From an uncultured archaeon (lineage in GTDB: Archaea > Asgardarchaeota > Thorarchaeia > Thorarchaeales > Thorarchaeaceae), in contig CAZSWP010000029.1 in assembly GCA_964610875.1 (NCBI GenBank), forward strand, positions 32,410-49,990: a stretch of 17,581 bases of DNA, given 5' to 3'. The notes beneath the pieces are model-generated. The model did not search any database. It saw nothing but the letters and a program-made list of their open reading frames with translations, and was not told the DNA's origin. A program made the position numbers and the translations under genes. Positions 1-5,248 of the stretch are shown here, one piece after another. Position 1 is the stretch's first letter. Each line of letters begins with the position of its first letter.

Positions 1-423
1 TATGATTATTCACCTTGGAGTGTAACTATGTTAGATGGCACCCGACAGTGGTTGAATGTAAGTCGTGAAGGTATTGACGATTTGGAAGACCTTCTTGATC
101 TGAGATTAATATCCATTCTTAGACTCAGCACTGCCAAATATGGTTATATTACTGCTTACAGCCTCACGGAGCTAGGAATTGACCTTATCAAAACAATATC
201 TGAAGAATTGAAGAGAGAAGTCCGAAATCTGCTATATGGAGAGTGTAAACAACCCCGACCAATTCTGATTCATGACCGAAAATTCTACTTCAAATGTCCA
301 GAATCAGATAAGGAGGTATACATTCCAATCGATGAGATTGAAGATGTGCCATATAGATCTGAGGCATACTTGCCGACACATCTGTCCAAACATAAGAATA
401 CTTCTGGAGGAGATAAACGGTGA
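1..423 (+). CDS. Uncharacterised winged-helix-like protein with degenerate Zn-ribbon-like C-terminal part (probably 5'-truncated by window edge)
   Basis: Frame 1 is open from base 1 (YDYSPWSVT-MLDG...), so the gene probably starts upstream; a GGAGTG at 17-22 means ATG 28 cannot be excluded. The helix 'DDLEDLLDLRLI' followed by 'AYSLTELG' matches the YxLTxxG wing pattern of wHTH domains. Two Cys (GECKQ...FKCPES). Stop TGA 421-423 overlaps the next GTG. Confidence 0.7.
   Translation, partial: YDYSPWSVTMLDGTRQWLNVSREGIDDLEDLLDLRLISILRLSTAKYGYITAYSLTELGIDLIKTISEELKREVRNLLYGECKQPRPILIHDRKFYFKCPESDKEVYIPIDEIEDVPYRSEAYLPTHLSKHKNTSGGDKR
406..410 (+). promoter_or_regulatory. Shine-Dalgarno GGAGG for the GTG start at 420
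   Basis: GGAGG 9 nt before GTG; GTGA start/stop overlap at 420-423. Confidence 0.75.
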
Positions 424-2174
424 ATGCTTCCACAATAAAAGACGAACTTACCGAATCAATCCAATTGAAAAATGTACGAGTGTTACTTAGTGAGTATATA
501 CCCTGTGATAGGAATATTCTGGAATCCATCGGTAAGAAAATCATGTCAGGTAGGGAAACTCAGGGGGAATTTGTTACAATGTTAATGGATGAGGTTCCCG
601 AGAGTACAATCTTCACCTCTGAGAAGATGTGTAATTCCATTCGTGTTATCGATTCATTACCAACCGAATACATAACTTGCGAAGCGTCAATTCAAGACCC
701 CACTGATGTCGAAGTGGAACAAAAAGAGCAAGTTGGTATCTATCTCAGTCATGATGGTCATATCATTTATGGTGCCCATATAACCGAAGTAGATGGTAAA
801 CTTGACATCTCGAAAGATGGGGTATCATTGGACAAACTAGCACGAATCATAATCGATCTTTCATACGATACATCACTGATGATGGATACCTTACTCACAC
901 AGCATCAGCGACGTCTAATGGAATGTGTATACAAGGGCACCTCTAGTAGCAGATACAAGTTTGTTGGAATTCTTGCTGAGAATATTGAGCCCCATTTTGA
1001 TGATCCTGAAGACTACATGGATGATGAGGAATATCAAAATGAGCTTGAACAGATACTAGATGATTTAGTTTTCGCTCATAAAAACGAACGCGATGGTAGT
1101 ATAATTCTCTCTGGCGAATCTGGAATCATGGTGACATCAAAATCCTGCGAAAAGTACGAATCTGTGGTCACATACTATTCCTTACTCAGAGGTTCAGAGA
1201 TATTTGTTAATGCACTCTTTGATCGCGTGTCTTTGTTATGGGATGAACTGGCAGATGTGAGAAAACTAATTGATAAAACAACTGAGGGGGACCATACAGT
1301 CATCACAAAGGCACAAAATATCCTCACAGATGCTTCTGCAAACTTCACCATTATCAAATCAATTGGCGGATATCTTACTAGAGGGTTCGAGTTAATTCAT
1401 GAAGGATGGAAGGATGAAAGCACGAAGATAGATGCCGAAATACTATCTGTAATTGACTTGGAATCAACACTATATCGAATCGTATCAAGAATCAATGATG
1501 CTGAAATCGATTTGAAGAGTCTTGAGAGCGAGGTTGAGGGTCTCCAGACACTCCTCTCAACACAGATTGAACAGCAGATGAGGCGTGTCTATAGTGCACT
1601 CAGAGACAACACTCGGAGCACAACTGAAGTCATAAGGGCCAGTGAACGCACTGGTAATGTCCTAGATGTCATCGAGCTAATCCTCTCCGGAACAATTGCT
1701 TTTGATATTGTATTTGCGTTAACTGGTGAATATGTCACTGAATTTGCTCTTTTCCCAACGGAGAATCCTGTTCTCTTCTTTACTCTGGCAATTGGGCTGT
1801 GGGGCGTAATCGTGATTGCTCTGAAGAAGAGCATGGATTGGCTTGAATCAAAGGTGGAGAAGAGTCATCTTACTCGGATTACCCTCAATGCCAAGTGCAG
1901 CATTGAGAAATTGGAAGCATATATTGATCAAGTTGAAACTGTTTCAATTGATGAAGAGCTTCAAAAAGACCGTTCAGCAGTGAGAGTAACTTACCACTAC
2001 AAATCACCCTTCATCGAAGGTGAAACAAAAGTGACAATTTCATATGATCGAAGAAATGCCATAATTCAAGATGTGATTATTGAAACAAGTGCAATGGATG
2101 TCACATTGATTAAGAACGGAGTTATTGAAAAGCTCCGTCAAACATGTCTTATGGAAAACCAATTAGCGCTATGA
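420..2174 (+). CDS. Uncharacterised membrane protein: large soluble domain, long coiled coil, two TM helices, C-terminal soluble domain (CorA-like topology)
   Basis: 584-aa ORF with SD. Heptad-like helix at aa ~357-411 (RINDAEIDLKSLESEVEGLQ...), hydrophobic segments at aa ~414-436 and ~450-468, acidic patch at aa ~192-215. No GMN signature. Confidence 0.75.
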   Translation: MNASTIKDELTESIQLKNVRVLLSEYIPCDRNILESIGKKIMSGRETQGEFVTMLMDEVPESTIFTSEKMCNSIRVIDSLPTEYITCEASIQDPTDVEVEQKEQVGIYLSHDGHIIYGAHITEVDGKLDISKDGVSLDKLARIIIDLSYDTSLMMDTLLTQHQRRLMECVYKGTSSSRYKFVGILAENIEPHFDDPEDYMDDEEYQNELEQILDDLVFAHKNERDGSIILSGESGIMVTSKSCEKYESVVTYYSLLRGSEIFVNALFDRVSLLWDELADVRKLIDKTTEGDHTVITKAQNILTDASANFTIIKSIGGYLTRGFELIHEGWKDESTKIDAEILSVIDLESTLYRIVSRINDAEIDLKSLESEVEGLQTLLSTQIEQQMRRVYSALRDNTRSTTEVIRASERTGNVLDVIELILSGTIAFDIVFALTGEYVTEFALFPTENPVLFFTLAIGLWGVIVIALKKSMDWLESKVEKSHLTRITLNAKCSIEKLEAYIDQVETVSIDEELQKDRSAVRVTYHYKSPFIEGETKVTISYDRRNAIIQDVIIETSAMDVTLIKNGVIEKLRQTCLMENQLAL

Positions 2175-3052: not shown

Positions 3053-3793
3053 ATGTTTCCTACTCAGAGTATGGGCTACGATAGAGCAATCACAGTTTTT
3101 AGCCCTGAAGGACGTCTATATCAAGTTGAATATGCCACCGAAGCAGTACGTCATGGTCCATTAGCTGTAGGTGTTAAAGTAAAAGATGGTGTAGTATTAG
3201 CTGGTGAGAAACGTTCACCAAATCCTTTAGTTGACTTAACAACACTAAAGAAAATCTTACTAATTGATGACCATGTTGGTACAGCTATTGCTGGGCTCCA
3301 CGCAGATGCTAGGAAACTTATTGATCAGGCTCGTGTACGAGCACAGATTAACAGACTCAGTTATGATGAACCAATAACCATCCAATCTCTGGTTGTGGAT
3401 ATCTGTGACACAAAACAGATGCATACCCAATATGGAGGAGTACGACCCTTTGGTGTTTCTCTTCTCGTTGCTGGTATTGACGATATGGGTCCACAGCTTT
3501 ACACAACTGATCCCTCTGGCTCATTTTGGGGCTGGAAAGCAACAGCCATTGGTAAAGAGTCTGACGTTGTTCGGGAGTACTTCAAAGACAAATACAAAGA
3601 AGGCATGAATCTTGATGGAGCACTCAAGCTTGCATTAGATGGTCTCTTTGATGCACGTGGGGAAACAAGCGAAGAAAATCCCGCTGAAAAGGCAATGAAT
3701 ATCGAGATTGGTATAATTAAAACTGATGACAAGATGTTCAAGATTCTTACCCAAGAAGAAGTCGAGAAAGTACTGACTCCCGAGAAATCTTAA
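3053..3793 (+). CDS. psmA: 20S proteasome alpha subunit
   Basis: N-terminal signature GYDRAITVFSPEGRLYQVEYA, plus KILLIDDH, GLHADAR, QYGGVRPFGVSLL, TDPSG, ATAIG. Confidence 0.97.
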   Translation: MFPTQSMGYDRAITVFSPEGRLYQVEYATEAVRHGPLAVGVKVKDGVVLAGEKRSPNPLVDLTTLKKILLIDDHVGTAIAGLHADARKLIDQARVRAQINRLSYDEPITIQSLVVDICDTKQMHTQYGGVRPFGVSLLVAGIDDMGPQLYTTDPSGSFWGWKATAIGKESDVVREYFKDKYKEGMNLDGALKLALDGLFDARGETSEENPAEKAMNIEIGIIKTDDKMFKILTQEEVEKVLTPEKS

Positions 3794-4236: not shown

Positions 4237-5124
4237 CTATTTCTTTACCTTCTCAACTAGATGGTCAACAATCATACCCGCGATGTCTAATTCTGTCACT
4301 CGTGCTAGTGCACTCCATGAAGGTGCTGCATTGGCTTCTATCACTACAGGACCATCCTCTGACTCCAAGATATCAACACCGGTATAGTCTAAATTCATGA
4401 CTTCCGCTGTCTTGATTGCAGTCTCGATATATTCCTCCGGAAGGTCCTCTGCGAGTTCGGCTCTTCCTCCACCATGTACATTGGTTCGCCATTCTCCTTC
4501 ATGGCCTTCTGGAAGATAACGGTACATTGCAGCTATGAATTGCCCTCCGATAACAAAGGCTCTAATATCACGTCCTGGTTTATTCACCATCTCTTGTACA
4601 TAGAGTACTTGTCCTAACTGATGGACGAATTTCATAGCTCGGTATGTGAGTTCGGGATGTTCTGCACGAATTGCTCCTAAACCCCTAGCTCCTATGAGAG
4701 GTTTAATGATGACGTCGTCATTCTCGTGGATGAACTCAATGCCAGCTTCTAGGTTCTCACCAATGAATGTCTTTGGTACTTTGATGCCTGCTTTGTGAAG
4801 GGCAGTGAGGGTTGCATACTTATCTTTTGCACGACGGAACGAATATGCTGGATTCATGACATAGATGCCCGCATCCTCGAAATGCTCCAGAACACTGATT
4901 CTGAAGGTTATCTGGTCTCCAGTCCCAAATCCGATTGTTCTTACTATCATTCCTTGAGCATCTGAAAAATCAACATCATTGAATATGAACCGATGCGGGA
5001 TTTGGGCACCAACATCAGCAAGTCTGATGGGCATGACTCGATGGCCTCTGTCTTCCATGGATTTGATGAGGCCTGCTGTAGCCCAATTATTGATATTCTC
5101 GTGGTACGTTATTGTAAGGAGCAT
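4237..5124 (-). CDS. RimK-family ATP-grasp alpha-L-glutamate ligase (MptN/Orf5-like)
   Basis: DKY, VPKT, IIKPLIGARGLG, YVQE, DIRAFVIG, WRTNVHGGG, GVDI, EANAAPSW. 'GTGDQITFRISVL' resembles the methanopterin-associated Orf5/MptN subgroup. ATG 5124 gives a typical length of about 295 aa. Confidence 0.88.
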   Translation of the reverse strand: MLLTITYHENINNWATAGLIKSMEDRGHRVMPIRLADVGAQIPHRFIFNDVDFSDAQGMIVRTIGFGTGDQITFRISVLEHFEDAGIYVMNPAYSFRRAKDKYATLTALHKAGIKVPKTFIGENLEAGIEFIHENDDVIIKPLIGARGLGAIRAEHPELTYRAMKFVHQLGQVLYVQEMVNKPGRDIRAFVIGGQFIAAMYRYLPEGHEGEWRTNVHGGGRAELAEDLPEEYIETAIKTAEVMNLDYTGVDILESEDGPVVIEANAAPSWSALARVTELDIAGMIVDHLVEKVKK

Positions 5125-5147
5125 ACTTTCTGGGACTCGGGTGTGCG

Positions 5148-5153
5148 TAAAAA
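5148..5153 (-). promoter_or_regulatory. Putative TATA-like box for a leaderless RimK-family transcript
   Basis: Minus strand reads CAAAGGC-TTTTTA, 24-29 nt upstream of ATG 5124, with no SD. Confidence 0.4.
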
Positions 5154-5248
5154 GCCTTTGAATTAGAGATAAATAATATGATCCCCGATCCATACAAAAG
5201 AATCAGGTCTTACCATCCATAAACCAGTTAGTGATAAGTAAAGATTCA

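Follow-up and report, generated by a model that had tools for sequence, protein, structure and literature searches.

The window, which is the whole 17,581-nt stretch of DNA that was analysed, opens with two overlapping genes, and all the features described for these two genes lie on the plus strand. Gene 1 (positions 1–423) is represented by its 3' 140 codons and is assigned to the MJ1567 family (PF27231) by the family label of close orthologues. It starts 162 nt 5' of the window (G000:C29:32248), has a full length of about 191–194 aa and contains a frame-keeping 10-N assembly gap immediately ahead of window base 1, for which no bridging contig was found in public run contigs. Gene 2 (420–2174; MJ1566 family, PF27230) has a GTG start and encodes a 584-aa divergent CorA-fold protein with two transmembrane (TM) helices. 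A Shine-Dalgarno-like GGAGGAG (406–412) precedes this GTG with a spacing of 7 nt, and the stop of gene 1 overlaps the start of gene 2 as GTGA (420–423); on sequence grounds, these elements at 406–423 indicate translational coupling of the two genes. The stop/start junction is identical in a public run contig, probably from the source sample itself, the reads of which come from a microbial mat. Both open reading frames (ORFs) are real genes. The module is single-copy in the genome, and the closest homologues, with 55–63% identity, are labelled Thorarchaeota, with one Lokiarchaeota, which makes a Thorarchaeota-type Asgard archaeon the most likely source. A sequence-only reading of this DNA had reported the GTGA overlap, the strong Shine-Dalgarno sequence and a series of motifs in both proteins; the junction is as it described, and all the motifs are present in the translations.

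Downstream of the pair lies an NrdG2 activase of the radical SAM type (2201–2932, over the cut-off), which we considered as a further part of the module and rejected, given that it adjoins the pair in only three loci of the window's own family. The genes that follow, a proteasome subunit (3053–3793) and a RimK-family ligase (4237–5193), are ordinary, and the translations between 5291 and 13723 include one small receiver-like ORF surrounded by several that resemble histidine kinases.

In the precomputed Pfam annotation, gene 2 belongs to PF27230 (MJ1566_N) and the gene upstream of it to PF27231 (MJ1567), names that derive from consecutive M. jannaschii locus tags, and the same two labels are precomputed on orthologues and on fused proteins. 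Both families are already catalogued in Pfam, as uncharacterised. The sequence-only reading had presented the pair as undescribed, with neither gene matching a characterised family. This is correct for function but not at the family level, given that PF27231 and PF27230 exist and that gene 2 falls within the CorA superfamily. We found no paper that names either Pfam family or any of six member accessions, and none that gives a function for any family member. A direct Pfam scan, with a model set that lacks these two families, yielded no match above the cut-off, NCBIfam has no match for the pair, PADLOC gives one weak match only, and a sequence search of solved structures matched only generic coiled coils.

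The structure model of gene 2 is confident (pLDDT 91) and shows an N-terminal alpha/beta domain (aa 15–172; 462–935), followed by a CorA-like core made of a second alpha/beta domain, two long helices and a stalk helix (aa 178–412; 951–1655). Then come TM1 (aa 414–436), a short loop without GMN, and TM2 (aa 449–470), together at 1659–1829, and an extra C-terminal alpha/beta domain (aa 480–576; 1857–2147). The two hydrophobic helices (about 414–436 and 449–470) come after a 90-residue helix, and profile comparison revealed no internal repeat between the alpha/beta domains. The window's pair is of the same kind as other members of PF27230 and PF27231, except that its C-terminal domain is missing in the shorter family members of about 470 aa, as it is in CorA; this domain has helix-grip/CYTH-like matches only, which are weak.

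In a Foldseek search with the gene 2 model, CorA accounts for 18/18 hits at E ≤ 0.001 and for nearly all of the top 50, although the whole-chain TM-scores against CorA are low (0.13–0.20 by query). VIA-align matched the soluble domain of C. jejuni CorA (Z 12.5, rmsd 2.1 over 127 residues), M. jannaschii CorA (Z 11.4) and MRS2 (Z 11.3), but generic helical bundles score equally high in this comparison, with Z up to 13.6. Profile–profile comparison with an Asgard CorA profile built from 25 sequences gave 81% (E 1e-5) over 163 columns that span the helices, the stalk and both TM helices, and the reversed control gave 0.5%. In this alignment, the conserved Gly436 of gene 2 corresponds to the glycine ahead of the CorA signature, and the GMN position itself aligns to unconserved residues. 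The GMN filter is present in 0/134 homologues and any GxN in 8/134, and the Pfam scan gave gene 2 no match to PF01544 (CorA) over the cut-off. Fold and profile place gene 2 among the distant homologues of CorA/Mrs2, with GMN lost and extra domains at both ends, and the channel-like subunit with two TM helices proposed from sequence is borne out by the two predicted helices and the CorA fold matches. With the CorA/Mrs2/ZntB/CmaX proteins (2-TM-GxN, PF01544) it has in common the alpha/beta funnel, the two long helices, the stalk running into TM1, the short loop and TM2. It differs from them in lacking the GMN/GxN filter and a PF01544 match, in its extra N-terminal domain with near-invariant polar residues and its extra C-terminal domain of about 100 aa, and in having an obligate winged-helix partner. 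With the magnesium filter lost, it is unlikely that the gene 2 product is a channel for Mg2+ uptake; nor would it have to fulfil that task, because two ordinary CorA genes lie elsewhere in the same genome. Two other groups have a shape like that of gene 2, namely a Planctomycetota Atlas cluster of PF27233 (MJ0711_N; TM 0.54 by target) and an unnamed bacterial Atlas cluster of 375 aa (TM 0.74 by target), and these are possibly further CorA-fold families.

The shared CorA fold by itself shows no function. Among 23 near-invariant columns of gene 2, 19 fall in the two soluble alpha/beta domains and are mostly polar; the N-terminal domain alone holds 13 of the 23, which makes it a candidate ligand or subunit interface. 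The best-conserved segment on average is TM1, in which two glycines are kept at 93–94%, and TM2 is poorly conserved. Because TM1 has conserved charged residues in many members, the membrane part could work differently from that of CorA. A rival reading is a non-conducting membrane scaffold or sensor, in which the CorA fold would serve as a membrane-anchored platform to which partner proteins or RNAs attach, a role that has been suggested for DUF155/Rmd1/RMND1-type proteins. The lost GMN filter, the poorly conserved TM2 and the nearly invariant soluble head would suit such a platform, as would the ubiquitin-like, ubiquitin or E2 domains that eukaryotic members add. However, the full stalk and both TM helices are kept across the three domains of life, the strongest average conservation and the two glycines lie in the membrane, in TM1, and the Pfam scan gave gene 2 no DUF155 match, so that we regard a scaffold as somewhat unlikely.

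The first 135 or so residues of gene 1, read from the model of a fused homologue, adopt a PadR/MarR-type winged-helix fold, as the sequence-only reading had anticipated. The gene 1 part of this model matches VanR (Z 9.8, rmsd 2.4), MarR (Z 9.8) and PadR (Z 9.0), with RosR also matched within the range of 9–9.8. Gene 1 is unlike these regulators in having a beta-hairpin insert, an acidic recognition helix, a zinc-ribbon tail and a coupling or fusion to a membrane protein. The predicted recognition helix (61–102), assigned from the PadR pattern together with sequence, family consensus and secondary structure, is strongly acidic. Sequence comparison identifies a zinc-ribbon remnant with two Cys left (244–297); the full Cys/His set is present in many other archaeal copies, and no complete ribbon was found among the eukaryotic copies examined. 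Near the C terminus, the alignment consensus gives a conserved motif, EDVxY.S.xY (337–375), which sits ahead of the linker in fused proteins. The matches to VanR, MarR and PadR would fit a membrane-tethered transcriptional sensor, in which gene 1 is a DNA-binding regulator held or released by gene 2. We consider this decidedly unlikely, given that the acidity of the predicted recognition helix is kept throughout the family, that permanent fusion to a two-TM protein in protists fits gene regulation poorly and that the loci have no conserved regulated neighbour.

The two genes are strictly linked. Gene 2 has a strong match in 29/201 genomes of the phylum and in 5/44 of the window's own family, and gene 1 lies directly upstream in 27/29 of these Asgard loci; the two loci without it are 5'-truncated near contig starts. 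The split pair is also adjacent in three other archaeal loci, one of them in a clade with Thermoplasmata members, so that the adjacency expected in other archaea was indeed found. No third gene is common to the loci across lineages. Within the phylum, a closed Asgard genome has one in-frame TAG near gene 2 profile position 100 (L023, G074:C1:914151-915887), for which an error, a pseudogene or read-through are candidate explanations. Another locus has gene 1 in two tandem copies ahead of a short gene 2 (L032:69-1444). Directly upstream of the pair in a Heimdallarchaeaceae-type locus is a gelsolin-domain gene (L005:4639-5283), which is common to five related loci and absent from the loci of other lineages.

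A precedent for such a pair is the CRISPR-associated CorA of Bacteroides fragilis, a divergent member of the fold for which second-messenger binding is known and gated-channel activity has been proposed. It has an enlarged N-terminal part with conserved charged residues that may bind the ligand, and in type III CRISPR loci it needs a partner gene, a phosphodiesterase or lyase, that is sometimes fused (PMC10600005). Compared at the fold level, the likeness lies in the divergent CorA, the enlarged N-terminal part and the partner gene that is sometimes fused; the present pair differs in that its partner is a winged helix, and no type III cas genes or nuclease/lyase partner were found near the loci examined. 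This precedent, together with the patchy spread of the module (including 1/401 genomes in the phylum of a Myxococcales metagenome-assembled genome (MAG)), would allow an antiviral membrane effector, a cell-killing pore with gene 1 as its infection sensor. Such a role is very unlikely: the loci have no cas or defence neighbours and show housekeeping synteny within lineages, there is no convincing PADLOC match, no plasmid or phage matches were found in the collections searched, and the gene pair is single-copy in its genome. Apart from patchiness, nothing points to defence.

We instead favour an oligomeric gated channel with an obligate cytoplasmic accessory subunit, a reading that builds on the observed CorA homology, filter loss, winged-helix fold and strict linkage and to which we give about an even chance. 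The gene 2 product would assemble into a ring, pentameric by analogy with CorA, with the stalk and TM1 lining the pore. The gene 1 product, kept at a fixed ratio through translational coupling, would be the obligate cytoplasmic subunit; it would dock on the extra N-terminal domain of gene 2 and help to gate the pore, and would not bind DNA. Opening would probably be controlled at a ligand or subunit site made up of near-invariant polar residues in the soluble head. We count in favour of a channel the CorA fold and profile matches, the conservation of the head, the strict linkage, the presence of two ordinary CorA genes, the precedent of the CRISPR-associated CorA and the cNMP-binding domain of one algal homologue, and against it the low TM-scores, the helical bundles at equal Z and the charged residues of TM1.

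The pair also occurs as a single protein. An exhaustive gene 2 search recovered long homologues (750–1500 aa) in which the match starts at about residue 200, and of 81 such proteins that also matched a gene 1 profile, 80 have this match directly before the gene 2 part. The collinear fusion that the sequence-only reading had proposed for eukaryotic proteins is therefore present. Named eukaryotic fused proteins come from oomycetes, cryptophytes, Mantoniella, Symbiodinium, Mallomonas and Chromosphaera, so that the groups with the fused form include green algae, a dinoflagellate and an ichthyosporean. Several eukaryotic members (P0279, P0259, P0269, P0304, P0321, P0325 and P0330) have added domains, namely cNMP-binding, ANKRD40 ubiquitin-like, ubiquitin and E2, with the cNMP-binding domain carried by one algal homologue. 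Many entries bear the label 'WD repeat-containing protein 35', which we rejected as a probable annotation transfer; its likely source is an oomycete-clade gene model that joins WDR35 domains to the fused protein (P0192, residues 3–766).

The collinear fusion in protists is thus supported, but the proposal that a two-subunit complex had fused in eukaryotes is not, given that the same fusion is found on bacterial contigs. One is an 842-kb Wallbacteria contig with chemotaxis genes, and the others are from Riflebacteria, Myxococcota and two more plainly bacterial contigs. In the one phylum counted, such copies are rare (1/401 genomes). A copy filed under Verrucomicrobiaceae was excluded from the bacterial ones, given its intron-like splits and its grouping with cryptophytes; this MAG (L038) has two copies in exon-like pieces, and its contigs (G202 C127 and C455) are probably eukaryotic. 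On one bacterial contig, an AAR2-like gene (PF20981; L042:12477-13259, minus strand) lies about 1.5 kb downstream of the fused gene; AAR2 is a eukaryotic spliceosome assembly family. The archaeal copies examined are split, save one unplaced fused copy among them.

We built mixture-model trees of gene 2, gene 1 and both joined, which are unrooted, so that the direction of transfer is not readable from them. The rows include the unplaced P0060, P0235 and P0104 and an archaeal, probably non-Asgard locus (L003), and the joint tree leaves out three long Asgard rows. All three trees agree on the branching order. Eukaryotes and the Myxococcota-type pair form a clade with support of 98/88 in the gene 1 tree and 100/100 in the other two, and the Myxococcota copy nests within the eukaryote clade in the gene 2 and joint trees. 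The next branches are the Riflebacteria copy with an unplaced fused copy, then the other fused bacteria, and then the split archaea; the branch uniting fused bacteria and eukaryotes has support of 97/94 (gene 1) and 84/92 (joint). The fused copy P0104 groups with a split pair from Asgard archaea, which suggests a second, independent fusion; it is known from one 2.5-kb contig only (L075:37-2304).

Constraining the window's own, Thorarchaeota-like family to group with eukaryotes was rejected (AU p=2e-6), and the protist gene is related to the Thorarchaeota-like pair only distantly, not as a sister lineage. Constraining all Asgard archaea and eukaryotes to group against the deep bacteria was rejected as well (p=0.021 and 0.0004), although these rejections hinge partly on the long Riflebacteria branch. 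When Riflebacteria was left free and Asgard archaea and eukaryotes were constrained against four deep bacteria and two other archaea, there was no rejection (p=0.09). We take these results to mean that the rare bacterial fused genes are the nearest to the protist gene and that a broader Asgard origin of the eukaryotic gene is disfavoured. In the alternative scenario, the module came to eukaryotes from an Asgard ancestor by inheritance and was fused there, and stem or crown eukaryotes later passed it to bacteria. The rarity of the bacterial copies, the Myxococcota copy inside the eukaryote clade, the AAR2-like gene at one bacterial locus and the non-rejection of the most permissive constraint would agree with such inheritance. 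However, all three best trees place fused bacteria between archaea and eukaryotes, all the stricter constraints were rejected, and several transfers or repeated fusions would be required, which makes this scenario unlikely. The combined proposal of a class of ligand-gated, non-magnesium CorA-fold channels with a winged-helix subunit, passing from an Asgard split pair to a fusion in the eukaryotic stem with later transfer to bacteria, is highly doubtful.

We therefore do not follow the suggestion that the pair is a eukaryotic-signature-type module. It is present in Asgard archaea and eukaryotes, but it is also found in bacteria as fusions and in other archaea as split pairs, and a clade of the Thorarchaeota-like pair and eukaryotes was rejected. 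Because a few bacteria carry the fusion too, it is probably not an Asgard-to-eukaryote signature. The phylogeny of the module is a caution that not every combination of an Asgard split pair and a protist fusion is an Asgard-derived signature. Here, we describe a conserved, unstudied membrane module with members in archaea, bacteria and eukaryotes; given its presence in protist groups distant from one another, it may date to early eukaryotes. The bacterial fused forms offer a simple one-gene test system. If the module is a channel, it would show that a CorA fold can function with the magnesium filter missing and with regulation placed in a separate subunit.
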